Shown: positions 2 to 64,000 of the stretch, piece after piece
How positions within the stretch are numbered: the first letter of the stretch is position 1
Layout: each line of letters starts with the position of its first letter
Source of the DNA: Clostridia bacterium
GTDB lineage: Bacteria; Bacillota; Clostridia; Oscillospirales; CAG-272
Assembly: GCA_017461475.1 (NCBI GenBank)
Contig: JAFTXX010000003.1
Coordinates: 43,171 to 107,170 of the forward strand
DNA: 64,000 nucleotides
Direction: 5' to 3'
Made by a program: the position numbers and the translations under genes
Notes under the pieces: generated by a model
Database searches by the model: none
Seen by the model: only the letters and a program-made list of their open reading frames with translations
What the model was told of the DNA's origin: nothing

Positions 2-3000
2 GGACCCGAAAGCGCGGACCTTCCCGCCGACCTTGACTCAAACATAACCATAAACAGCGGTACATTTTATAAGGTCTGCGGCTTCTCCCGCAACAAGGGC
101 GTTGCAACGATGACCTACACGGGCACCTCGCACATCACTGTAAACGACGGCACTGTCGGTGAGATTTACGGCGGCTCCCTCGTCAATCACTACGGCGGCA
201 GCACCGAAATCACCGTAAACGGCGGTACCGTTTCGGTAATCAACGCAGGCGGCGACGCAACCCGTCAACTTCTCGGCAACGCGAAAGTTACAATAAACGG
301 CGGCGTTGCAGGTACACTCAATGTCAACAACGTTGTCGGCAATGCCGATGTATACCTCATCGGCGGCAAACTCGGCACCGCCAGTATAACATACGCAAAC
401 GACAACATCAAAAAGAGTGCGGAAAAAGCGCTCTCCACGAAGACTGTCTACTGCGATTCAAGTCTGTTCGGCACTTCGCAGATAGAAACTTTCAAGGGGA
501 TTTTCGACAAGTACGAAAATCTCGCCAAGGTTTATGTAGCCGCGGGCGGCACGGGCGACGGTTCAAACTCCGCAAGTCCCCTCGGTACTCTCGCCGCAGG
601 CTATGACGCACTGCACGAAACAGGCGGCACGGTATATGTCGTCGGCAGTGTGCCTTTCGGCGACATAATGAGTTACAAAAAAGCCGAGGAAACCGTCACA
701 TTTGAAGGTGTTGACGGCGGCGAAATCGTTTTCGGCGCGGGAACATTTGCATTTGAGGGCAACGTAACCTTTAAAAATGTGCGCATTTCCTCAACAGGTG
801 CGCTCACACTTGCGGCGCAGAACGGCGAACTTACAATAGGAGAGGGAACCGTCACTTCCTACACGGGATTTGAACTTGCGGGAGTTGGCTCTGAGTCATC
901 CCTCACCGTAAAGGCGGGCAGTATTGCAAACATTACCGTCGGTATGTCGGGCAGCGGCACGCATAACCTCTCGGTTCTCGGCGGCGCGATAGGCAATGTC
1001 ACCGTTACACAGAGCGGCTCGGTTGCAGGTGCCGAAATCGTTGTTTCGGGCGGTAGCATAAACAACCTCACTGTCGGCGCAAACAGCGTAAGCAAAAAAC
1101 TTGTGCTTCGTCTGCGCGGCGGCAATATTGCAAGCGTTACTGTTGGCGCACTCACTGCAGAAGTGCTTTGTGATATCGAAAGCGCGAGAATTGAAAAGTT
1201 TACGATAACTTCTCAGCTTGAAAACGGCTCGCTCATGTACGGCGACAACTCGGATATGACGCTTATAAATTCCATCTCGCAAAAGTTTGGCGAACAGATA
1301 AGCGCAAACCTTGTTTACCTCGCAGACGGCGGTGCGGGCGACGGTTCAAGCCCGTCAAGCGCACTCGGCGACTTAAGCGCCGCAATAAGCGCACTTGGCG
1401 GCGAGGACGGCACGGTTGTAATCTGCGGTACGTACACAATTGACAGCGCATATACCGTGAAAAACCACACGGGCAAGGTAACAATTACTTCATATGATTA
1501 TATAACCGACTACCGTGAAAGCGGAGCGGCGATAGTAATGAGCGCGGCTCTTACCCTCGGCGGCGAAACCGTATTTGAAAAGGTCAACTTCAAAGCGGCG
1601 GCGGCAACGCTGATTTATGCAAAGGGCAGTCCGCTCACAATTGAGGAAGACGTTAACTGCGAACTCACAAACAGCAATACGTCTTACATCGGTCTCGTCG
1701 GCGGTCACAACAACCTGCTTGCGTCAAAGACTGTAAGCGTCACCGTCAAGAGCGGCGACTGGGGTTCGCTCCGCGGCGGTTATAACTCCACAAAACTTAT
1801 CGCCGACGGGCTAAAGCACAACGTTACAATAAGAGGCGGCACATTCCACAGTTATGTTGCACTCGGCTCGCGCGGCAACACCTCGGGAACTATCAATGCA
1901 GACATCAGCGGCGGTACATTCCTCTGCGGCTTGTATGCGCTCTATGAGGAAGACAGCGCAGGTTACAGTCTAAACTACAATGTCACCGTCAGCATCACGG
2001 GCGGCGACTTCCAGGGCATCATTGCTCCCGCAAAGGATTTTGATACCGAGCTTCACGGCTCGTACACTCTGAACCTTGACGGCGGCGAATTTATGCACCT
2101 CACCGACATTCTCGGAACCGAAGTGTTTGCGGGTGACATGACAAGCAAACTCAATATAGGAAACAACATCAACCTCGACGAGGAAGAGACGGGCACGACT
2201 TCGTTTACAAACCCCATCCGTTACAACAACGCCGACCCTAACCTTTTCTACTACGACGGTTTCTATTACTACACATGTACGGGTTCGACCACGATAGGTA
2301 TTATCAAGGCGGCAAACCTTGCCGATATCAAGACCACAACTGCATACACCATTCTCGAGGAGACAGGCGGTATGAACCTCTGGTCGCCCGAAATCTGGTA
2401 CTTCACGGCTGAGGACGTGGGCGAAGAAAACGCGGGATGGTACATGTTCATCTCGTTTGACGACGGCACCACCGCAAATCAGCGTATGCACGTTGTAAAA
2501 TGCCTTGACGGCGACAATCTGCTCGGCACATGGGGCGATCCTGTCACGGGTGAACCCAACAAGCCGCGCAAGATAGTTTTCCCCGATGCTCCTTCTATCA
2601 ATGTTGAAAGCCTTTGCGGCGGTATGTCGGTGAGCAGGATAAACGGCAAGACCTACATCACCTATATCGGCGAGGCAGACCGCGGAACGTCAAACTTCCA
2701 CCAGACGGTCAATATCTGCGATTTTGACAATCCGTGGACGATGAAGGGCGTTCCCACCACCATTTGCGTTCCTACCGAGGAGTGGGAAATGGGCGGTTAC
2801 GGTCAGGATAAAAACGGTAACTGGTACCCGAAAGTTGTTGAGGGCGCGGCGGCTGTTTACGGCGATAACGGCGAGTATTACCTCATGTACACGGGCAGCG
2901 GCTACTGGACTGTTTACTATCAGTTAAGTTACTTAAAGTTTAAAGGCGGCGACCCGCTCAACTCATCCAACTGGGAAAAGTACGGCAAGCCTATCTTCGC

Positions 3001-3832
3001 ACGTTCAAGCGAAGTTAACGGCTGCGGACACGCGTCCTACATCACCGACCCGTTCGGCACCAAGTGGGCGGCATACCACGGCTACCTCGGTCCCGACGCA
3101 TCCGACCGCCGTTGGTCTCACTTTGAGCCTATGACCGTTGACGCAAACGGCGTTACCATAGGTAACGGCAGCGGCATGCCAAACAGCCTTGACACCGTTT
3201 ACACAGTGCAGGCAAATCCCATGCCCGTCCGCGAGAAGATAAGCGGTTTTGATACCACCAATGCAGGCGCGTTTATGCCTGCACGCACATATGAAGACCA
3301 ATTTACCGACGTTACCGCGGACAAGTGGTTCTACGAATATGTGAAACTTGCATACGAATACGCGCTTGCAAACGGTACTTCGGCGACTAAGTTTTCACCC
3401 GATAACAAGTTTACCGTAGCGCAGGCACTTACCGCGGCGGCAAACATCCACACCGCATATTACGGAAAGACCGTCCGCGCGGCGGCTTCGGGCGAAAGTT
3501 GGTACACACCTTACGTTGAATATTGCGTGGAAAACGGCATTATCACAAGTACGCAGTTTGGCGACTTCAATAAAAATATCACCCGCGGCGAAATGGCGCA
3601 AGTCTTTGCAAATATCCTTCCCGAGGGCGAGTACGCGGCTACCCGAAGCGGTTCAAACCCCGATGTCACAAGTGAAATGGCTTGTTACAGCGCGGTTCAG
3701 AAACTTTATAATGCGGGTATCGTAGGCGGCGACGCGGGAACAGGCAACTATCGTCCAAACGACGAGATAGTGCGCTCGGAGGCATGCGTAATCTTCACCC
3801 GCATAGCGGCTCCTTCAAAAAGAATAAAGTAA
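2..3832 (+). CDS. Large cell-surface protein, 5'-truncated by the window edge: Gly-rich beta-helix-like repeats + GH43-like module + C-terminal SLH-like wall anchor
   Basis: The frame of the listed ORF (110..3832) stays open back to nt 2, so the gene starts upstream of the window. It has repeated ..GG(T/S)..I(T/N)VNGG.. units. Nt ~2207-3150 encode GH43-type motifs (NADPNLFYYDGFYYY, WSPEIWYF, VVEGAAAV). The last ~180 aa are FTDV..W..YV-type SLH-like modules. Confidence 0.8.
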   Translation, partial: GPESADLPADLDSNITINSGTFYKVCGFSRNKGVATMTYTGTSHITVNDGTVGEIYGGSLVNHYGGSTEITVNGGTVSVINAGGDATRQLLGNAKVTINGGVAGTLNVNNVVGNADVYLIGGKLGTASITYANDNIKKSAEKALSTKTVYCDSSLFGTSQIETFKGIFDKYENLAKVYVAAGGTGDGSNSASPLGTLAAGYDALHETGGTVYVVGSVPFGDIMSYKKAEETVTFEGVDGGEIVFGAGTFAFEGNVTFKNVRISSTGALTLAAQNGELTIGEGTVTSYTGFELAGVGSESSLTVKAGSIANITVGMSGSGTHNLSVLGGAIGNVTVTQSGSVAGAEIVVSGGSINNLTVGANSVSKKLVLRLRGGNIASVTVGALTAEVLCDIESARIEKFTITSQLENGSLMYGDNSDMTLINSISQKFGEQISANLVYLADGGAGDGSSPSSALGDLSAAISALGGEDGTVVICGTYTIDSAYTVKNHTGKVTITSYDYITDYRESGAAIVMSAALTLGGETVFEKVNFKAAAATLIYAKGSPLTIEEDVNCELTNSNTSYIGLVGGHNNLLASKTVSVTVKSGDWGSLRGGYNSTKLIADGLKHNVTIRGGTFHSYVALGSRGNTSGTINADISGGTFLCGLYALYEEDSAGYSLNYNVTVSITGGDFQGIIAPAKDFDTELHGSYTLNLDGGEFMHLTDILGTEVFAGDMTSKLNIGNNINLDEEETGTTSFTNPIRYNNADPNLFYYDGFYYYTCTGSTTIGIIKAANLADIKTTTAYTILEETGGMNLWSPEIWYFTAEDVGEENAGWYMFISFDDGTTANQRMHVVKCLDGDNLLGTWGDPVTGEPNKPRKIVFPDAPSINVESLCGGMSVSRINGKTYITYIGEADRGTSNFHQTVNICDFDNPWTMKGVPTTICVPTEEWEMGGYGQDKNGNWYPKVVEGAAAVYGDNGEYYLMYTGSGYWTVYYQLSYLKFKGGDPLNSSNWEKYGKPIFARSSEVNGCGHASYITDPFGTKWAAYHGYLGPDASDRRWSHFEPMTVDANGVTIGNGSGMPNSLDTVYTVQANPMPVREKISGFDTTNAGAFMPARTYEDQFTDVTADKWFYEYVKLAYEYALANGTSATKFSPDNKFTVAQALTAAANIHTAYYGKTVRAAASGESWYTPYVEYCVENGIITSTQFGDFNKNITRGEMAQVFANILPEGEYAATRSGSNPDVTSEMACYSAVQKLYNAGIVGGDAGTGNYRPNDEIVRSEACVIFTRIAAPSKRIK
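3287..3832 (+). repeat. Copy 1 of a ~545-bp duplicated anchor-coding cassette
   Basis: Nucleotide and protein similarity to 5361..5906. Long identical runs, e.g. tctcccgataacaagtttaccgtagcgcaggcact and gcggttcagaaactttataa. Confidence 0.8.
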
Positions 3833-56203: not shown

Positions 56204-59200
56204 ATGAAAAGACGTATTGCGTATGTTTTTGCGATTGTACTGCTTGCGCTTGTGTTTTCGTTTGCTGTTTTTGCATCGGACGACGGCGCAAACTGTATGT
56301 ACTGCGGCGCATATCGCTACGGCGATTGGCTTTGCGACTGCGGACTTTGCAGTATAGAAGCCGAGCCTGCGGATTGCTGGGCAGCTACGCACTGTTGGGA
56401 ATGCGGCGCTTGCTTTAACACAATGACAAAGTTTTGTGTCGAGTGCCATTATTGTGAAGAATGCTACGTAGCAGAGGGTACGCACTGCCTTGGTTGCGAG
56501 GAGTGCCACATTTCCGACTATCAGGATGAGCTTTGCGGCGAGTGCTGGTTTTGCGCTGACTGCATGGGCGGACTTTGCGACGGTTGCGGCTTTTGTGCGG
56601 GATGCCAGGAGCTTGACGGTGGCGTGCATTGCCCCGAGTGTGGAGGTTGCTACGGCGAGTACGGTGCATGCGAGGAGGATGGAGCAGAGCATTGCAAGGA
56701 GTGCTGCCTTATCTGTGAGCAGTGCGAGCGATGCGTTTTTGACGACGGACTTGAACTTTGCTCGGAATGTAACTTTTGCGAGGAGTGTTGCAGACATGCG
56801 GCACAGAGCGAGGGCTGCGACTGCGGCGAATACTGCGTGGAGTCGAGCGATTGGTACGACCACGTCTGCCTTAATTGCGGAACTCCTTACTGTCAGATAG
56901 ACCAGTGTGACCTGTGCGAGCTTTGCCTTGACTGTTGCGAGTCGAACTCCGATTGCTCGGAGGGACTTTGCGTCATGGACGATGAATATGATTATCATTT
57001 CTGCGAGGATTGCGGAATTTGCTTCCACGAGGTTGACGCTTGCGAGGATTGCGGAGACGCGGGCGAGCTTCGCTGCGAGGATTGCTCCGCCGCTATTACC
57101 GAGGACGCGGGCTGCGACTGCAGCGATATGTGCTTTAACATGGCGGGGTTTGACACCCACGTAGCAACCGAGCACAAGGGCGCGGACGGCAGCCATACCG
57201 CAAAGCCGCAAAAAACATGGACTTACGACATGAACTATCACTGGAGGGATTGCTCTCTTTGCAGTGAAGCGGCGCATATAACCGTAAAGGAAAAACACGC
57301 ATTTGACTATTTCGGCATTTGCGCTGTGTGCGGATTTGACTCCAAAACCAAAATTGTTATTCTCCGTCAGCCGAATAGCCGCATAGTAGAGGTGTCGGAT
57401 AATGATGCGGGAGCAGGCGAGCCGTATAACATCGAGGACAATCAGGTTTCGTTTTCGGTAGCGGCGGTGGGGACGGGCACGCTTACCTACCAATGGTACG
57501 AAAAGCGCGGCATGTCCGAGTGGAAACCTATGAAAGACGAAATGAACTACTTTGTCGCAAACAGTAAGTTCTACACGGTCTACGGCACAAAAACAGACAG
57601 ACTCACGATTGCGGTTCCCGTGGACGTGTGCTATACCGAATACGCATACCGTGTGGTGATCACCGATGCCGAGGGCAACACGGTGACGAGTGCGGCGGCG
57701 CAGATCGCCTCCAAGCACATCTACAAAAAGGCAATTGCACATAAGGGTGCGCTTATCGGCACGATCCGTCAGTCAAACAAGAGCGATAACATCGGCGTTT
57801 ATGCAACAAACGGTCATTACATCCTTTGTCAGGGCGACGGTTGCGAAGCCGAAAAGATTGTTTCTCACAACTACGGCAAGGGCGTGCGTGAATACGTCGA
57901 TAATACCGATTACAGCGTTTGGACCGAGTTTGTGTGCAAGGATTGCGGATTTGTAAATTATATCAAAAACCATGACCACTACTTCTACGATCCCGAAAGC
58001 GGAGAGTGCGAGGTGGACTATACATACAAAAATTCAGTAAATCACCGCTTAAAGTGCCTCTATCCTGATTGTGAAAAGACAACGCTTGAAGCACACGTCT
58101 TTATGCCATGGGGCAATCACGGCACACCGCACACTGCAAGCGGCGGTGTCGGCATTGCGTTTAAGGAATGCGCACTTTGTGCTTATTCTTACACGAAAAA
58201 GCCCCAGTATTTTGACTTTGTCAAGGAGGAGAACATTACTACCGACTGGACAAAGGCAAATGACCTCGTGTATGTACGCTACGGATTTGCAAGCGGAGAT
58301 ATTTACACAGTCGGCGACAGCATGTACATCACCTTTGCACCGACTGTTACGGATAAGAGAGACCACATAAAAATGACCAATCCGAAGTGTGTCGGCTGGA
58401 AGGTATTTTACAGTGGTAACAATGTTTCGGATATAGACGTTACAAGTGCCTGCACCTTTGAAAAGCTAGAGGGTGAGGCAAAATGGGTAGTGAAGATTTC
58501 AAAATTCCTGACCCATACGGGCGGCGGCACATTTGCCTTCGTTCCTACTATAGATACAAAAGAGTGTGAGCATATAAATGGCTCAAGGATTTTCGGTGCA
58601 TACAAGCCGATCTGTACGACCGACGGCTACACGGGTGACCGCAAGTGTGTGGACTGCGGCTACGTTGTGCAGTACGGTGAAGCCATACCGGGCGGTGAAG
58701 AGCATGCAGGAGAGCTTAAACTTGTAAGCGGTACTTCGAGAAATGGCACTTGTGAGCAGCGTGGCTACGAGGGTGACTACAAGTGTTCCCACTGCGGTGC
58801 AAAAGTGAAGGGCAAGACCACGCCTAAGGTGCACACGGGCAAAACCACCGTGAAAAATGCAAAGAAAGCAACCTGCACATCCTTTGGCTACACGGGCGAC
58901 ACATATTGCTCCTGCGGAGCCATGATAAAAGAGGGCGACCTTATTGTTCCCACGCACAGCAATATTGTAACACTTAACTACAAAGAGGCAACCTGTAAAA
59001 ATGACGGCTACAGCGGTGATATGCAGTGCAAGGATTGCGGTATCTTCGTCCGCTACGGTCACACTGTCAAGGGCGGCGAGCATGCATGGTCAGACTACAA
59101 GGTGCTTGATGCGGTAAATCACAAGTGTTATTGCAAGGTAAGCGGCTGTAACGAGATCATGACCGAGGCGCATACCGATGCGGACAGAAATCTCGTCTGC

Positions 59201-60217
59201 GACACCTGCGGCTATTCCTGGGGCGAGGATGGAGAGTATATTTCGAGTATCGTGTTCAACATCGATCCGCCCGAAATCGGTGCAAAGGCCGATTATACCA
59301 AGTTTGACGGTAAGCGTTTTGCAAGCGACAATTCGGGACTGAGCGCATCGAGATACAAGAACGGCATTGCATGGGAGAACACAACAAGCGGCAAATTCCT
59401 GCTCCCCGGCGGCACAGAGGTGTTCGCGGAGGGCAACGTTTATAAAATCTATATTTCTTTCCGTACCAATGGCGACTATAAGTTTGCAACTAATGTTACC
59501 GCAACAATTAACGGCACTACAGCAAAGACAGAGTATATCAGTGAGCAGTTTGTAAATGTTGAATATACATTCCCGAAGCTCGACCACAAGCATGATTACA
59601 CCTTGATGCGAAACGAAAACTCACATCACTACGAGTGTCTTGTTTGCAGTACAGTCAAGGATGCAGGCAGTCATACATTTGACGCAAACGGACGTTGCAA
59701 GACCTGCGGATACAGTAAAAATACGGGTAATCCCTTTACCGATATAAAGGCAAGCGACTACTTCTTCGATGCGGTAATGTGGGCAAAGGATACGGGACTT
59801 ACCGTTGGTACTACTGCAACCACGTTCTCGCCATACGACACCTGCACCAGAGCACATGGAATTACATTCCTTTGGCGTGCGGCGGGTAAACCTATAGCAA
59901 AGAATAAGGTAAATCCGTTTACCGATGTAAAAACCACCGACTACTATTACGATGCGGTGCTTTGGGGTGTTGAAGAGGGAATTATAGTAGGTACATCGAA
60001 GACAACTTTTACACCTCACCAGACCTGTTCAAGTGCCCACATTATCACAATGCTGTACCGAGCAATGAAGATAGGCAATAACGGCTGGTACGAGGAAGCA
60101 AAGTCTTGGGCAAATGGAGAGGGACTTCTTAACGGAACGAAGTTTGTCGTTTCACCCGATGAGCCTTGTCCGAGAGCAGGAATTGCATATTTCCTCTATA
60201 TGTTCTACGAAAAATAA
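56204..60217 (+). CDS. 1,337-aa secreted protein: extreme Cys-rich acidic N-terminal region, Ig-like YQWY module, Cys4 mini-modules, C-terminal SLH-like triple anchor
   Basis: GGAGGA RBS and signal peptide MKRRIAYVFAIVLLALVFSFAVFA. Dense CxxC arrays. C-terminus NPFTDIKASDYFFDAVMWA.. / NPFTDVKTTDYYYDAVLWG.. / WYEEAKSWANGEGLLNG. Confidence 0.85.
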   Translation: MKRRIAYVFAIVLLALVFSFAVFASDDGANCMYCGAYRYGDWLCDCGLCSIEAEPADCWAATHCWECGACFNTMTKFCVECHYCEECYVAEGTHCLGCEECHISDYQDELCGECWFCADCMGGLCDGCGFCAGCQELDGGVHCPECGGCYGEYGACEEDGAEHCKECCLICEQCERCVFDDGLELCSECNFCEECCRHAAQSEGCDCGEYCVESSDWYDHVCLNCGTPYCQIDQCDLCELCLDCCESNSDCSEGLCVMDDEYDYHFCEDCGICFHEVDACEDCGDAGELRCEDCSAAITEDAGCDCSDMCFNMAGFDTHVATEHKGADGSHTAKPQKTWTYDMNYHWRDCSLCSEAAHITVKEKHAFDYFGICAVCGFDSKTKIVILRQPNSRIVEVSDNDAGAGEPYNIEDNQVSFSVAAVGTGTLTYQWYEKRGMSEWKPMKDEMNYFVANSKFYTVYGTKTDRLTIAVPVDVCYTEYAYRVVITDAEGNTVTSAAAQIASKHIYKKAIAHKGALIGTIRQSNKSDNIGVYATNGHYILCQGDGCEAEKIVSHNYGKGVREYVDNTDYSVWTEFVCKDCGFVNYIKNHDHYFYDPESGECEVDYTYKNSVNHRLKCLYPDCEKTTLEAHVFMPWGNHGTPHTASGGVGIAFKECALCAYSYTKKPQYFDFVKEENITTDWTKANDLVYVRYGFASGDIYTVGDSMYITFAPTVTDKRDHIKMTNPKCVGWKVFYSGNNVSDIDVTSACTFEKLEGEAKWVVKISKFLTHTGGGTFAFVPTIDTKECEHINGSRIFGAYKPICTTDGYTGDRKCVDCGYVVQYGEAIPGGEEHAGELKLVSGTSRNGTCEQRGYEGDYKCSHCGAKVKGKTTPKVHTGKTTVKNAKKATCTSFGYTGDTYCSCGAMIKEGDLIVPTHSNIVTLNYKEATCKNDGYSGDMQCKDCGIFVRYGHTVKGGEHAWSDYKVLDAVNHKCYCKVSGCNEIMTEAHTDADRNLVCDTCGYSWGEDGEYISSIVFNIDPPEIGAKADYTKFDGKRFASDNSGLSASRYKNGIAWENTTSGKFLLPGGTEVFAEGNVYKIYISFRTNGDYKFATNVTATINGTTAKTEYISEQFVNVEYTFPKLDHKHDYTLMRNENSHHYECLVCSTVKDAGSHTFDANGRCKTCGYSKNTGNPFTDIKASDYFFDAVMWAKDTGLTVGTTATTFSPYDTCTRAHGITFLWRAAGKPIAKNKVNPFTDVKTTDYYYDAVLWGVEEGIIVGTSKTTFTPHQTCSSAHIITMLYRAMKIGNNGWYEEAKSWANGEGLLNGTKFVVSPDEPCPRAGIAYFLYMFYEK

Positions 60218-60240: not shown

Positions 60241-61740
60241 ATGAAAAAACTATTGGCTTTTGTATTTGTAGCAATGCTGGTACTCGGCATGGCAGTGACC
60301 GCATTTGCGGCATGCGAGCATGAATTTTTGGCAATGAGAAACATGACATCTCACTATGAGGAATGTCAGAAGTGCTTCGAGCTCCGTAACGCAGGCAGTC
60401 ACACCTTTGAAAATGGCAAATGCACCGTTTGCGACTATGAGGAACCGATTATAAATCCCTTTACTGACGTACCAAACGATGCATGGTATGCGGCAGATGT
60501 TTTGAGCGCGGTTGCAACAGGTCTTATCACCGGTAAGACTACAGATAAGTATGCACCAAATGACAACCTCACCTATGCCGAAGCTGTAAAGCTTGCGGCT
60601 TGCATGAATGAGAAATATACAAAAGGCGAGGTCACGCTTGAAATCGGCGCCCCTTGGTATCAGACATATGTTGACTACTGCAAGAATAACAACATTATCC
60701 GCACCGAGTACAACTGGAACGACTTTGCAACAAGAGTGGGTTATATGTATATTTTTGCATACGCACTTCCCGAGGAGGCGTATGAGCCGATCAACACGAT
60801 CGAGGACGGCACTATACCCGACGTTCCGATGGACTCTCCCTATGCAGACATCGTTTACAAACTGTACAGAGCAGGTATTGTAACGGGCGTTGACGCACAG
60901 CACAACTGCAATCCCACGGCTAATATCACGCGCGCGGAGGTTGCGGTCATCGTTGCAAGAATGATGGACCCATCAAAGCGTATCAGCTTTGAAATGAAGC
61001 ACGTCTATGATTCTGTGCTGGATGATGGCTCGGATATCGAGATCGGCGGCGATCCTGCTATCGTAGTTGGCGGTGGAGATCAGGTAGACTATGACGTGAA
61101 CACGGGGGATTTCGTACTCGATGATACCAAGCTTCCGCTAAAGATCACTGCCGATCCCGAGTCTTATGAGGCAGAGGATTACGGCGAAAAAGCTGAGCTT
61201 AAGGTAGTTACAGACGGAGGCAAGCCATACTTTACCTACGAGTGGTACTACAATGCGTACAGAAACGAAAAGGTGAAAATTGAAAACGGCGACTTTGTAA
61301 GCGGCGCAGATACCGACACGCTCACTATTTTGGTTGAAAAGGACAACACTCTTCTCGGCTCTAAAATTTTCTGCAAGGTTACGGATGCAAACGGCGTAGA
61401 GGTAACCTCGAATAGCGCCTCGGTTTACGGACTGTTCTCTATGTCGGCTGAGGATGTGACGGTTGTTACAGCGACCAAGGAATATACTGTTGTCGGAACC
61501 GTGGCAGACGGAGTTCTCCGAAAGGGCGACAAGATTTCCGTGGAGATGAACGGCAAAATCATTTCTATCGGAACTGTCAAAGACATACAGATGTTTAACA
61601 AGTCTCTTGACGAGGCAGTAAAGGGTGACCGTGTGGGCGTTACGTTCGAGCTGACCGACGGTGTAAGACCGCAGTCGGGAAGCATAGTAATCAAGTACAA
61701 CGACGCACATGTTATTGACACAAGCGATATCGTAAACTAA
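60241..61740 (+). CDS. Secreted protein: Cys4/His mini-module + SLH-like anchor + Ig-like module + C-terminal EF-Tu domain-2-like barrel
   Basis: AAGGGAG RBS before the ATG at 60241 and signal peptide MKKLLAFVFVAMLVLGMAVTAFA. See findings for the motifs. Confidence 0.85.
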   Translation: MKKLLAFVFVAMLVLGMAVTAFAACEHEFLAMRNMTSHYEECQKCFELRNAGSHTFENGKCTVCDYEEPIINPFTDVPNDAWYAADVLSAVATGLITGKTTDKYAPNDNLTYAEAVKLAACMNEKYTKGEVTLEIGAPWYQTYVDYCKNNNIIRTEYNWNDFATRVGYMYIFAYALPEEAYEPINTIEDGTIPDVPMDSPYADIVYKLYRAGIVTGVDAQHNCNPTANITRAEVAVIVARMMDPSKRISFEMKHVYDSVLDDGSDIEIGGDPAIVVGGGDQVDYDVNTGDFVLDDTKLPLKITADPESYEAEDYGEKAELKVVTDGGKPYFTYEWYYNAYRNEKVKIENGDFVSGADTDTLTILVEKDNTLLGSKIFCKVTDANGVEVTSNSASVYGLFSMSAEDVTVVTATKEYTVVGTVADGVLRKGDKISVEMNGKIISIGTVKDIQMFNKSLDEAVKGDRVGVTFELTDGVRPQSGSIVIKYNDAHVIDTSDIVN

Positions 61741-61771
61741 AATGTTCCACTTTGCCGAAAGGAGCAAAATT

Positions 61772-64000
61772 ATGAAAAAACTGTTGATTGTCATACTTGC
61801 TGTTATGCTGGTATTCGGCATGGCAGTGACCTCATTTGCCGATGAAGAGATCCGCGGCGAGGGCGAGCATGACCATAAGCTGATGAACGGTGCGGATATG
61901 GACTACCACTTTGAAGAATGTCAGGTGTGCTTTGAACGTTTTAACGTGAAAGACCATATCTTTAAAGACGGTATATGCACATTCTGCGGATATTCCGAGC
62001 CGAAAAATCCGTTTACAGACGTAAGCGAATCCGCATGGTATTACAGCGACGTTATTACCGCTTATGTGGATAAGCTTATCAACGGTAAGACCGAAACTAA
62101 ATTTGAGCCCGACCTAAATATCACATATGTCGAAGCGATAAAACTTGCGGCATGTATGCACCAGAAATATACCACGGGCAAGGTAACTCTCACAGTTGGC
62201 AATCCTTGGTATGCGCCTTATCTTGAGTATTGCATCGAAAACGGCATCTTGCGCGAGGAGCACGGCTATGACCTAAGCGCTCAGGCAACAAGACAGGGTT
62301 ATATGCGTATATTTGCATATTCACTTCCTGCAGAGGCACTCGAAGAGATAAACTTTGTTGCCGAAAACGCAATCCCTGATGTAAAGAACGATCCTGCAAT
62401 CTACAAGCTTTACCGCGCAGGTATCGTAGGTGGAGTGGATGCGGCACGCAATTGCAATCCTAATGCAAATATCAAGCGCAGTGAGGTTGCGGCGGTTCTC
62501 ACAAGAATGATGAACAAGGCGGCAAGAATAGAGTTTACTCTCGGGGAAAAGCCTGTCGAGACCGAGCCGCTTCGCTTTACAGGCGCGTCATCCTATTCCT
62601 ACTACGGACAGTACGTATTCTCGGTTACCGCTGAGGGCGGCAAGGCTCCACACATATATACTTGGTACTGCAAGGACGGCGGCAAAGAAAGCGTTATTGA
62701 ACACGGTGCTTTTGCAATACTTGAAACCGAGAACGTGGGTAAGAATGACGGAATCATCGCATTCCCGTTCAAGGAAGACAACCCCTACCTCGGCAAGCAG
62801 TTAAAACTTGTAGTTACAGATGCAAACGGTGAAAGCATTGATACGGGGTATACCGATATTCCTGCATACTTCGAGGTGGAGGCACCCGAAGAGGAAGCTC
62901 CTACAGTAACATACGAAAAGCTTACAATAACAAAGCAACCCGAATATGTTGCAAAGGCTGAGGACGGTATGCTTATCTACTATGAGGTATCGGTAGATGG
63001 CGGCAAGGCGCCGTACAACTATGAGTGGTTCTATTACACGGGAACTAAAAACCTGACTGCTCCTATTGAAAACGGCGAGTTTGCACTTGTAGACGAGGGT
63101 AAACTCGGACTTGGATTTTATCTTGACAGCCCGTATATTTCAAAGCGTTTTGCTTGCAAAGTTACCGATGCAAACGGCGAAAGCGTTGTAACAAATATGA
63201 TAAAGATGCCCGATGCTCCATTTACTATGGAGATCGAGAGCATAGACAAAATTTCTCTCGGTACAATTGTGGTTGGCAGAGTTAAAACGGGCACTCTGCT
63301 GGTTGGCGAGTCGGTTGCCGTTTGCTATGACGACAAGTACACCTACGGTATAGGCAAGGTGGAAAAAATCGAAATGTTCAATAAGGCGCTTGACAAGGCG
63401 GAGGCAAACGACCGCGTGGGTATTCTTCTGCCCGATTTCGGCACGGTCACTACACGTGATAGCCTTATCAGAACATACGACGAAATGGGACTTATCGGCG
63501 ATAGTAAAAACATTGTTATTAAAAAGCCTGTGAGAGCCGGCATCAGCTATACGCCGAGAGGAGATATCGGTGACTGGACAACAGTGACTGCTTATGCCCA
63601 CGGCGGCAAAGAACCCTATACCTATGAGTGGCAGATAATGATACTTGACGGACAGTATATTTCGCTGAAGGACTTTACAAATTCTTCGGCATGGGCAAAC
63701 GGATTTGATAAAGACACTTTGAATTTGCAGGTACGCGAGGAGCAGTATACAAAGGGCTATGCCTTCCGTTGCATGGTGACTGATGCAAACGGCTCTGTTG
63801 CGTATACGGATGCGAAAATTCCCACACCGTATACGCTGATTGTCGGTAAGCATCCCGAGAGCGTGTATGCAAACTACGGTGAAAAGGTTGAATTTACCGT
63901 AAAGGCATACGGTTCGCGTGACAGCGAACTCAAGTATCAATGGCAGTATACTTATGACGGTGCCAAGACATTTAGGGACATTCTACCTACCGACTCATGG
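61772..64000 (+). CDS. Paralogous secreted protein (3'-truncated by the window edge) with the same N-terminal architecture, several GGK.PY.YEW...VTDANG modules and an internal EF-Tu domain-2-like barrel
   Basis: AAAGGAG RBS before the ATG at 61772. I translated the frame by hand to nt 64000 without meeting a stop. It is absent from the ORF track because it has no stop in the window. Confidence 0.8.
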   Translation, partial: MKKLLIVILAVMLVFGMAVTSFADEEIRGEGEHDHKLMNGADMDYHFEECQVCFERFNVKDHIFKDGICTFCGYSEPKNPFTDVSESAWYYSDVITAYVDKLINGKTETKFEPDLNITYVEAIKLAACMHQKYTTGKVTLTVGNPWYAPYLEYCIENGILREEHGYDLSAQATRQGYMRIFAYSLPAEALEEINFVAENAIPDVKNDPAIYKLYRAGIVGGVDAARNCNPNANIKRSEVAAVLTRMMNKAARIEFTLGEKPVETEPLRFTGASSYSYYGQYVFSVTAEGGKAPHIYTWYCKDGGKESVIEHGAFAILETENVGKNDGIIAFPFKEDNPYLGKQLKLVVTDANGESIDTGYTDIPAYFEVEAPEEEAPTVTYEKLTITKQPEYVAKAEDGMLIYYEVSVDGGKAPYNYEWFYYTGTKNLTAPIENGEFALVDEGKLGLGFYLDSPYISKRFACKVTDANGESVVTNMIKMPDAPFTMEIESIDKISLGTIVVGRVKTGTLLVGESVAVCYDDKYTYGIGKVEKIEMFNKALDKAEANDRVGILLPDFGTVTTRDSLIRTYDEMGLIGDSKNIVIKKPVRAGISYTPRGDIGDWTTVTAYAHGGKEPYTYEWQIMILDGQYISLKDFTNSSAWANGFDKDTLNLQVREEQYTKGYAFRCMVTDANGSVAYTDAKIPTPYTLIVGKHPESVYANYGEKVEFTVKAYGSRDSELKYQWQYTYDGAKTFRDILPTDSW

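Follow-up and report, generated by a model that had tools for sequence, protein, structure and literature searches.

What does a piece of elongation factor Tu (EF-Tu) do in proteins equipped with an export signal and a cell-wall anchor? EF-Tu is a textbook cytoplasmic protein that has repeatedly been reported on bacterial surfaces, and how and why this occurs is disputed. The question is raised by two neighbouring genes, A and B, at the end of a 64,000-nucleotide stretch of DNA (the window) from a Clostridia bacterium (contig JAFTXX010000003.1). A first-pass annotation had described in their products beta-barrels resembling EF-Tu domain 2, embedded in secreted proteins with S-layer homology (SLH) anchors and lacking any GTPase domain. 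The peptides quoted there were reproduced by translating 61432-61737 and 63218-63485.

Architecture of genes A and B

Both genes are long + strand open reading frames that start with an ATG (at 60241 and 61772, respectively), preceded at a distance of 8 nt by a ribosome-binding site of the GGAG type. As B runs past the end of the window, its full length was taken from an identical contig (L001) showing 0 mismatches over 60241-64000. The features of both genes are as follows.

60241..61740, + strand: gene A, 499 aa; signal peptide, Cys/His module, three SLH domains, disordered linker, Ig-like domain and C-terminal EF-Tu domain-2 barrel
60241..60309, + strand: Sec-type signal peptide of A, MKKLLAFVFVAMLVLGMAVTAFA followed by A, by inspection of the sequence
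60310..60450, + strand: Cys/His-rich module of A, HxH...H.EEC..C...H.F..G.C..C; family profile 87 bits
60451..60990, + strand: triple SLH cell-wall anchor of A; Pfam SLH E 4.7e-17, Foldseek match 3pyw
60991..61131, + strand: tether of A, disordered and poorly conserved; pLDDT <50 for residues 255-295
61132..61425, + strand: Ig-like domain of A (SprB/Ig_3 type), always before the barrel; family profile 140 bits, Foldseek Ig matches, architecture counts
61426..61737, + strand: EF-Tu domain-2-like beta-barrel of A; limits from the family profile, PF03144 38.7 bits on the segment
61772..64000, + strand: gene B, 743 aa in the window and 913 aa in full, stop expected at about 64513; signal peptide, Cys/His module, three SLH domains, two Ig domains, EF-Tu domain-2 barrel and three Ig domains
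61772..61840, + strand: signal peptide of B, MKKLLIVILAVMLVFGMAVTSFA followed by D, by inspection of the sequence
61865..62005, + strand: Cys/His-rich module of B; family profile 71.6 bits
62003..62536, + strand: triple SLH anchor of B; Pfam SLH E 6.6e-14, family profile 250 bits
62561..63208, + strand: two Ig-like domains of B (62561-62860 and 62915-63208); family Ig profile
63212..63520, + strand: internal EF-Tu domain-2-like beta-barrel of B; limits from the family profile, PF03144 37.9 bits on the segment
63551..64000, + strand: further Ig-like domains of B (63551-63820, and from 63830 onwards, interrupted by the window end); family profile

The N-terminal signal peptides that had been proposed for both proteins were recognised again by inspection: both start with MKKLL, have an n-region with KK (MKK) and a 16-residue hydrophobic core, and end in AFA↓A (A-x-A at -3/-1) in A and in SFA↓D in B, a pattern that recurs throughout the family. 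Residues 2-21 of A form a helix in its AF2 model (mean pLDDT 84). The Cys/His-rich module of A could be assigned to no Pfam family and consists of three beta hairpins in the model. SLH anchoring, also part of the earlier description, agrees with the Pfam matches of both proteins and with the Foldseek alignment of the SLH model of A to 3pyw, the three-SLH structure of B. anthracis Sap (TM 0.71 over 183 columns). The tether shows a mean pairwise identity of 0.28 compared to 0.61-0.74 in the folded modules (0.71 for the Cys/His module). The Ig-like neighbours of the barrel were recovered by the family profile, Pfam and Foldseek, with Pfam SprB reaching 28.0 bits in the Ig region of B, which equals its cut-off. 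In A the barrel is the distal, C-terminal module.

An EF-Tu domain 2 without a G domain

Exactly one EF-Tu domain-2 barrel is present in each protein. At 33.9 bits (A) and 33.0 bits (B) for the whole proteins, both exceed the gathering cut-off of 30.3 bits of PF03144 (GTP_EFTU_D2), and the isolated segments are significant as well (E 1.4e-9 for A and 2.5e-9 for B), so the homology put forward by the first-pass annotation holds under the profile search it had suggested. The NCBIfam EF-Tu models align the B segment with profile positions 212-282 of 396 (E 4e-10), and in a phmmer search against all PDB sequences only EF-Tu, EF-1alpha, SelB and CysN-type chains matched, the best E-values being 6.7e-10 (B) and 3.8e-6 (A). 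The AF2 model of the B segment, with a pLDDT around 90 across most of the barrel, superposes on EF-Tu domain 2 from the PDB with an rmsd of 1.9-2.5 Å over 75-76 columns and 38-41% identity (Foldseek). All of its top PDB matches are domain 2 of EF-Tu or EF-1alpha, as expected for the translation-factor fold that had been predicted and not for an unrelated one; the A barrel is modelled with a pLDDT of about 90 or more. Both barrels resemble EF-Tu domain 2 far more closely than chance would allow, and the resemblance extends to the six-stranded topology and to the signature PF.M..E(D), G(R)V..G.(L/I).(K)G, (E/Q)MF.K.LDE and GDNVG.

In contrast to EF-Tu itself, A and B have neither a G domain (no match to PF00009 or another G-domain profile at E <= 1, in line with the GTPase-free architecture claimed before) nor a domain 3 (no match to PF03143). 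Their barrel is preceded by a signal peptide, an SLH anchor and Ig domains, and its location is predicted to be extracellular. The EF-Tu equivalog TIGR00485 scores 24-35 bits versus a cut-off of 522 bits and covers only positions of about 205-290. The barrels of A and B share only 33% identity with each other and 24-34% with EF-Tu. From the nine residues scored for the pocket that holds the acceptor end of aminoacyl-tRNA (E215, D216, F218, T228, E259, F261, R262, N273, R288), three are kept in A and four in B, with F218, T228 and R262 being replaced; judged by these positions neither barrel retains the conserved tRNA pocket of domain 2. Invariant among 88 distinct barrel copies are M260, F261, K263 and G234 (E. 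coli numbering); at position 257, where E. coli EF-Tu has Gly, Asp or Lys predominates in the family. With its acidic character (mean net charge -4.3) and few exposed aromatic residues, the barrel gives no pointer to polyanion or carbohydrate binding.

A domain-2 barrel without a GTPase is also known from Pbp11 (PF0907; PDB 4pgo, 7ANU), a stand-alone domain-2-like tRNA-binding protein of Thermococcales. This small archaeal protein resides in the cytoplasm, and its partners are tRNA and the proteasome activator PAN (PMC9540759). The A barrel model matches 4pgo with a TM of 0.80 and an rmsd of 1.8 Å, and there are weak matches to the NCBIfam Pbp11 model, but the sequence kinship to Pbp11 is much weaker than to EF-Tu and Pbp11 has no export signal or anchor.

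Family, synteny and origin of the barrel

In species-representative genomes 405 related stretches were found, all from Clostridia MAGs, and the barrel is present in 61 of the 77 loci examined; PF00395 and PF03144 occur together in the majority of the 120 best homologues of A. The combination of SLH, Ig and barrel defines a family of uncultured gut and rumen Clostridia. No protein carries more than one barrel, though between 1 and 6 Ig domains are present, and the barrel nearly always comes after an Ig domain. With mean pairwise identities of 0.66 for the barrel, 0.68 for the SLH anchor and 0.61 for the Ig domain, the barrel is, as far as these values tell, as conserved as the anchor and under constraint. 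Family members consisting of SLH and Ig repeats only do occur, so the scaffold can do without the barrel. Because the sequence comes from a metagenome assembly, an artefact was also considered, be it a chimeric assembly or the accidental read-through of a decaying tuf fragment. Such an artefact has nothing in its favour and can be ruled out, as the identical protein A is found on 7 independent public contigs, the family occupies 61 genome loci with conserved synteny, and the barrel keeps the reading frame, shares no more than 24-34% identity with EF-Tu and evolves under constraint.

Usually A-type and B-type genes lie side by side (adjacent in 27 loci), and in several loci the A-type gene stands alone. 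The pairs adjoin a gene for an SLH protein of roughly 1000 aa with a pectate-lyase-like ‘adhesive’ N-terminus. In the window, the same cluster includes an upstream gene:

56204..60217, + strand: 1337 aa, Cys-rich (103 Cys), with a C-terminal SLH anchor (Pfam SLH) and the same Cys/His module

The C-terminal third of its product is 30-47% identical to SLH proteins beside A-type genes in more than 15 loci, and those neighbours show weak matches to the Pectate_lyase_5 ‘adhesive domain’. Other SLH-anchored proteins, including a GH43 enzyme, are encoded in the same window.

The origin of the module can be addressed through SLH-anchored relatives from Clostridia MAGs (P0174, P0192 and P0341, among others) that carry EF-Tu domains 2 and 3 and are publicly annotated just as ‘S-layer homology domain-containing protein’. 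They share with A and B the SLH/Ig scaffold (57% identity between P0192 and B in the SLH region), the placement of the barrel behind an Ig domain and the taxa, but they have kept domain 3 and 6-8 of the nine pocket residues, compared to three in A and four in B. P0174, in which the pectate-lyase-like ‘adhesive’ domain, SLH, Ig and domains 2 and 3 are fused in one protein, is 36% identical to residues 211-385 of E. coli EF-Tu (E 1e-27) and scores 130 bits with the NCBIfam EF-Tu model versus 65 with that of EF-1alpha. Among the best 120 homologues of P0192 about 20 contain PF03143. Since domains 2 and 3 of these relatives clearly match bacterial EF-Tu, the module most likely goes back to the 3' portion of a tuf gene, and since they still occur together on the same scaffold, the ancestral recruit probably comprised both. 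According to a short-alignment NJ tree and identity gradients, from which this polarity was taken, domain 3 was most likely lost later in the lineage of the window. A possible remnant is its first strand, with which 10-14 residues of the near-invariant barrel tail Y..HV(I/V)DTSDI(V/I)N (61696-61737 in A) can be aligned. The idea that domain 2 alone had been recruited thus stands for the present state of A and B, which have domain 2 without domain 3, but probably not for its history, as there is a conserved family and no single event, with a probable recruit of two domains.

Possible role of the barrel

We propose, with a probability of roughly 55%, that A and B are exported, SLH-anchored proteins in which a tuf-derived domain-2 barrel acts as putative extracellular binding head. 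After Sec export the N-terminal triple SLH module would anchor both proteins in the Gram-positive cell wall. [quoted passage not shown] A flexible tether would then lead to an Ig-like stalk and to the single barrel, which probably descends from bacterial EF-Tu domain 2. A tuf-derived cassette of domains 2 and 3 would have entered the surface-protein family, and in the lineage of the window domain 3 and the greater part of the aminoacyl-tRNA pocket would have disappeared afterwards, so that the barrel would no longer work in translation. It may serve as a specific ligand-binding head, either adhesive or protein-docking, within a three-gene cluster of wall-anchored surface proteins, and binding would probably occur via the conserved hairpin face (E/Q)MF-K-LDE...GDNVG, which corresponds to the lining of the cleft towards domain 1 in EF-Tu. 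The invariant residues may also be structural (barrel core and turns) instead of forming a binding face.

The barrel might also be a mere structural spacer, i.e. an extra rigid beta domain that adds length or stability to the Ig stalk and binds no ligand, which we regard as a serious possibility albeit an unlikely one. Its position between Ig domains in B would fit such a task, but in A it is terminal and nothing is left to space. The eroded tRNA pocket in both proteins and the barrel-free relatives with the same scaffold are likewise compatible with a spacer, and the conserved motifs coincide with those that characterise the translation-factor domain 2 fold; yet a spacer does not account well for exactly one barrel per protein despite a varying number of Ig domains or for a conservation that matches the anchor and exceeds the Ig domain (0.66 vs 0.61). 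Taking these three features and the invariant residues together, a specific role is most likely preferred over a spacer. A docking module that pairs A-type with B-type proteins, or with the large SLH neighbour, into a surface complex would suit the adjacent gene pairs with one barrel in each, the third SLH gene as conserved neighbour and the fusion of neighbour-type and A-type modules in P0174. As solitary A-type genes exist and the A and B barrels are so dissimilar, we consider this pairing improbable.

Even less probable, and in our opinion very unlikely, is that the barrel still behaves like EF-Tu domain 2 outside the cell, either as a binder of aminoacyl-tRNA or RNA ends or as a decoy for agents directed at domain 2 (thiopeptides of the GE2270A class, CDI toxins, phage proteins or host antibodies). 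The relatives with domains 2 and 3 do keep most acceptor-end residues, and the fold matches 1d8t, 3u2q and 7vmc show domain 2 as site for GE2270A-type antibiotics and CdiA toxins. However, A and B have lost most of this pocket including F218, T228 and R262, they have no domains 1 and 3 to complete the tRNA site, and the viral fold search gave giant-virus translation factors only. The Asp or Lys at position 257 also speaks against a decoy, as substitution of G257 in E. coli EF-Tu leads to GE2270A resistance. A broader and rather doubtful suggestion is that the proteins of the window belong, as a diverged tip, to a widespread and so far unrecognised class of deliberately exported EF-Tu modules (domain 2 or domains 2 and 3) without a G domain. 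Candidate members are the SLH-anchored forms of Clostridia, lipoproteins from a Spirochaetaceae MAG and other sources, and fusions to Big_2, to a cold-shock domain or to the C-terminal domain of ribosomal L7/L12. As many of them keep 8-9 of the nine pocket residues, such proteins could be hard-wired ‘moonlighting’ adhesins, or they could act outside the cell by binding or diverting aminoacyl-tRNA-like ligands or EF-Tu-directed toxins.

The extracellular binding head that we favour for A and B can be compared with two known systems. With Bacillota SLH surface proteins such as Sap and EA1 of B. anthracis or SpaA and SlhA of Paenibacillus alvei they share the triple SLH module and its predicted binding to wall polymers, and they differ in the passenger domains; a description of an SLH protein with a translation-factor domain was not found in the literature. 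With moonlighting EF-Tu they would share an EF-Tu-derived structure at the cell surface. Full-length EF-Tu on bacterial surfaces binds fibronectin, factor H and transferrin, and in ExPEC every EF-Tu domain including domain 2 contributed to transferrin binding (PMC9037478, PMC6305414). That protein is a complete cytoplasmic one with neither signal peptide nor anchor, whereas A and B are separate genes with one diverged domain and both of these elements; going by their sequences they are not moonlighting EF-Tu, which is full-length, translation-active and free of a signal peptide.

In summary, a translation domain is predicted to be re-used outside the cell in a conserved manner, for which no earlier description was found in the literature. 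A piece of EF-Tu is written into genes with an export signal and a wall anchor and has been maintained by selection in many uncultured gut and rumen Clostridia. This offers a clear-cut natural case in which a core domain of translation was co-opted for (predicted) extracellular use, with intermediates that point to its tuf origin. The Ig-barrel unit and the barrel with domain 3 are defined, expressible constructs with which the adhesive and ligand-binding capacity of the EF-Tu C-terminus could be probed. A practical problem is that annotation and metaproteomic pipelines may take such proteins or their peptides for ‘elongation factor’ signals. For the fibre-associated gut Clostridia, the barrel would be a new passenger domain in their surface repertoire.

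Genes A and B and their surroundings

The two barrel-bearing genes, A and B, are consecutive on the plus strand, each with its ATG 8 nt downstream of a GGAG-type ribosome-binding site, and both peptides quoted in the first-pass annotation are exact plus-strand translations of 61432-61737 and 63218-63485. The full length of B was read from L001, a public contig that agrees with the window at every position of 60241-64000. The features discussed here are the following:

110-3832, +, GH43 enzyme with SLH, 1240 aa
3846-5906, +, SLH protein, 686 aa
27562-33093, +, protein with Big_9, DUF4430, Listeria-Bacteroides repeat and 3x SLH, 1843 aa
33157-34716, +, SLH protein whose match to a prenyltransferase-like toroid is weak and sub-threshold, 519 aa
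36223-38661, +, fused ECF ORF with two ABC ATPase domains and an ECF-transporter S component, 812 aa
54764-55867, -, regulator with a HisKA_7TM sensor region fused to a LuxR/GerE DNA-binding domain
56204-60217, +, upstream gene, secreted protein with C-terminal SLH anchor, 1337 aa
60241..61740, +, gene A, 499 aa
from 61772, open at the window end, +, gene B, 913 aa at full length
60310-60450, 61865-62005, 59582-59725 and 57209-57349, Cys/His-rich module of 47 residues, HxH...H(Y/F)EEC..C...H.F..G.C..CG

Protein A consists, in this order, of a signal peptide (MKKLLAFVFVAMLVLGMAVTAFA, cleavage before the residue A, judged by eye only), the Cys/His-rich module, a triple SLH module, a tether, one Ig-like domain and the C-terminal barrel. 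In the model of A the SLH module resembles the SLH structure of Sap from B. anthracis (TM 0.71) and the tether comprises 45 disordered residues with a pLDDT <50. B has the same N-terminal half, and behind it the barrel is preceded by two Ig domains and followed by three more. The export signals claimed for both proteins are present, as judged by eye, and domain profiles and structure matches bear out the SLH anchor and the Ig-like modules accompanying the barrel. Antisense ORFs over this region (61138..61821, 61425..61721 and 63140..63940, minus strand) found no support. B-type proteins, the homologues with the architecture of B, have a conserved C-terminal tail behind their last Ig domain, LLSDDA.VNLE.GH.PKD..IV(L/I)I(W/G/Q), which is not an LPXTG motif; in B it lies at 14190-14270 of L001, about 190-270 nt past the window end.

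In A and B the Cys/His-rich module comes after the signal peptide, in the upstream protein before the SLH anchor. It has no Pfam match, is modelled as three beta hairpins, occurs in up to four repeats in relatives and, with a mean identity of 0.71, is among the best-conserved parts of A-type proteins; it could be an extracellular zinc-ribbon-like module. The upstream protein contains 103 cysteines in dense CxxC-type repeats. Its homologues beside A-type genes elsewhere cover only the C-terminal third and carry weak 'pectate lyase-like adhesive domain' matches instead. The regulator gene lies divergently and directly upstream of the three-gene SLH cluster and is a candidate for its control. As the window encodes at least seven SLH proteins, one of them the GH43 enzyme, SLH display appears to be the general wall-decoration route of this organism, and much of its surface and enzyme repertoire is evidently displayed via such anchors. 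Elsewhere in the window, the S component of the 812-aa ORF belongs to ECF_trnsprt / ECF-ribofla_trS, an unusual fused ECF arrangement as a single ORF.

Identity and origin of the barrel

Both barrels (61426-61737 in A, 63212-63520 in B) match PF03144 above the gathering cut-off of 30.3 bits (A 33.9, B 33.0 bits; 38.7 and 37.9 bits for the excised segments), and NCBIfam EF-Tu models align at profile positions ~205-290 with E-values down to 4e-10 for B. A phmmer search against all PDB sequences returned matches limited to EF-Tu and its kin EF-1alpha, SelB and CysN (best E 6.7e-10 for B and 3.8e-6 for A). The AlphaFold model of the B barrel, a barrel-only model, fits onto the EF-Tu domain 2 seen in many crystal structures with an rmsd of 1.9-2.5 Å over 75-76 columns and 38-41% identity. 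Inside the model of whole A the barrel reaches a pLDDT of ~90 or more and resembles the stand-alone domain-2-like protein PF0907 (4pgo, TM 0.80); Foldseek with the whole model returned mostly Ig and antibody matches. Pfam profiles gave zero G-domain matches in A or B, in line with the claimed lack of a GTPase, and no match to domain 3. By every test used the two segments are EF-Tu domain 2, which confirms the earlier observation and supports its interpretation.

The placement of the barrel is based on profile scores, PDB matches and intermediates in which domains 2 and 3 of EF-Tu are both present. When 1.84 billion representatives were searched exhaustively with a profile, the family came first, followed by SLH/Ig proteins of the same scaffold with both domains. 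One of these, P0192, shares 57% identity with B over the anchor region and shows the order Ig - domain 2 - domain 3 - Ig; PF03143 is found in ~20 of its best 120 homologues. The last 180 residues of another homologue, P0174, are 36% identical to E. coli EF-Tu 211-385 (E 1e-27), and its C-terminus scores 130 bits with NCBIfam EF-Tu versus 65 for EF-1alpha and <=35 for SelB and CysN. Among the nine EF-Tu residues contacting the aminoacyl-tRNA acceptor end, the domain 2+3 forms keep 6-8, A 3 and B 4, and the identity to E. coli domain 2 is 34-46% in these forms, 24% in A and 34% in B. In the simplest history, with its polarity inferred from a short alignment, a bacterial tuf gene would have contributed its 3' part to an SLH/Ig surface protein by fusion, and in the lineage of the window domain 3 would then have been lost and the tRNA pocket decayed.

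Distribution and constraint of the family

Among the 120 best homologues of A, a majority have both SLH and PF03144 in precomputed domain annotation, and some without the PF03144 flag, e.g. P0091, are nonetheless strong matches to the barrel profile of the family. Scanning one genome per species gave 405 related stretches, all of them in Clostridia MAGs (Oscillospiraceae, Acutalibacteraceae, Feifaniaceae and others), and the MAGs with a named host are from ruminant or other herbivore guts. The barrel is present in 61 of the 77 fetched loci (87 barrel ORFs), and the modules always come in the order [Cys/His]n - SLH - Ig(n) - barrel - [Ig]n. No protein has a second barrel, and nearly always the barrel has an Ig domain before it. 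An A-type gene directly adjoins a B-type gene in 27 loci, with a ~1000-aa protein nearby that has a C-terminal SLH anchor, shares homology with the 1337-aa upstream gene over its C-terminal third and in several genomes shows weak matches to a pectate-lyase-like 'adhesive' domain. The barrel proteins are therefore a family and not a single curiosity, publicly named 'S-layer homology domain-containing protein' or 'hypothetical protein'.

Mean pairwise identity across 56 A-type proteins is 0.66 for the barrel, 0.68 for the anchor, 0.61 for the Ig domain and 0.28 for the tether. In E. coli EF-Tu numbering, G234, M260, F261 and K263 never vary across 88 distinct barrels, and F210, G229, G239, D266 and G275 hardly do; the conserved residues are the EF-Tu/EF-1alpha signature (E/Q)MF-K-LDE...GDNVG. 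The near-invariant C-terminus DTSDIVN of A-type proteins was considered as a sorting tag and ruled out: its counterparts in the alignments are a stretch inside B-type barrels and strand 1 of EF-Tu domain 3, and it is therefore part of the barrel module. The longer tail Y..HVIDTSDIVN aligns with the same strand, which is His-led.

Function of the barrel and comparison with known proteins

We consider it somewhat better than an even bet (about 0.55) that the barrel is an extracellular binding head, because there is one per protein, because in A it is distal with a flexible linker as tether, because it is as conserved as the anchor, because the conserved cluster includes an adhesin-like SLH protein and because P0174 fuses it to the adhesive domain of that SLH protein. 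Against this, the invariant residues could be purely structural, scaffold relatives without a barrel exist, and the acidic barrel surface suggests no obvious ligand class; polyanion binding was dropped for the same acidity. An inert spacer is conceivable but doubtful, and docking of A to B, the products of neighbouring genes, through their barrels is a less probable role still. Retained EF-Tu-like binding, or a decoy, including the thiopeptide idea, is very improbable with the pocket eroded in both proteins, and an artefact is excluded by recurrence and synteny. In a viral structure library only giant-virus translation factors matched, with no link to phage proteins.

As a domain, the barrel of A and B is a member of PF03144, whereas the proteins are not translational GTPases, failing on G domain, domain 3 and pocket, and instead belong with the SLH-anchored surface proteins. 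Among described proteins with a G-less domain 2, the nearest is Pbp11 of Thermococcales, a cytoplasmic tRNA-binding protein (PMC9540759). Moonlighting EF-Tu differs in being the complete factor and in lacking export signals. Every EF-Tu domain contributed to transferrin binding in ExPEC (PMC9037478), and antibodies to the EF-Tu of NTHi target the region around domain 2 (PMC6305414); these results show only that exposed parts of EF-Tu can bind host molecules. Our literature search found no paper on SLH proteins, or exported proteins of any other kind, that contain EF-Tu domains, and nothing relevant on SLH with an EF-Tu domain, PF03144 with secretion, or EF-Tu with SLH and Oscillospiraceae.

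Outside the SLH family the profile search also returned P0176, P0241, P0203, P0154, P0184, P0136, P0137, P0182 and P0142, G-less proteins with EF-Tu domain 2 or 2+3 and signal-peptide or lipobox N-termini. They include Big_2 with domain 2, two domain-2 barrels with a cold-shock domain, and a 749-aa protein in which a unit of ribosomal L7/L12 C-terminal domain and domains 2+3 occurs twice; in several proteins 8-9 of the nine pocket residues are kept, none has a name in public annotation, and a Spirochaetaceae MAG is the source of one cluster member. Two more G-less groups (P0177, P0187, P0214, P0238 and P0149, P0152, P0162, P0173) are probably not exported, one of ~300-400 aa with an N-terminal CxxC...CxxC zinc-ribbon before domains 2+3 and the other of ~120-150 aa with an 'MGW.FW...'-type N-terminus before domain 2 alone. 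P0197 (1002 aa), a further G-less setting, has no signal peptide; its long N-terminal region is followed by Cys-rich repeats of beta-helix-like type, a single predicted transmembrane segment and a domain-2 barrel with 7/9 pocket residues.

A and B are thus SLH surface proteins carrying an unprecedented translation-factor-derived passenger, and the evolutionary story of their barrel is unusual as well as clear. As lipoproteins and Big_2, cold-shock and L7/L12 fusions exist, many with the tRNA pocket kept, a widespread class of exported proteins with EF-Tu domain 2 or 2+3 and no G domain is conceivable, if less likely than not.
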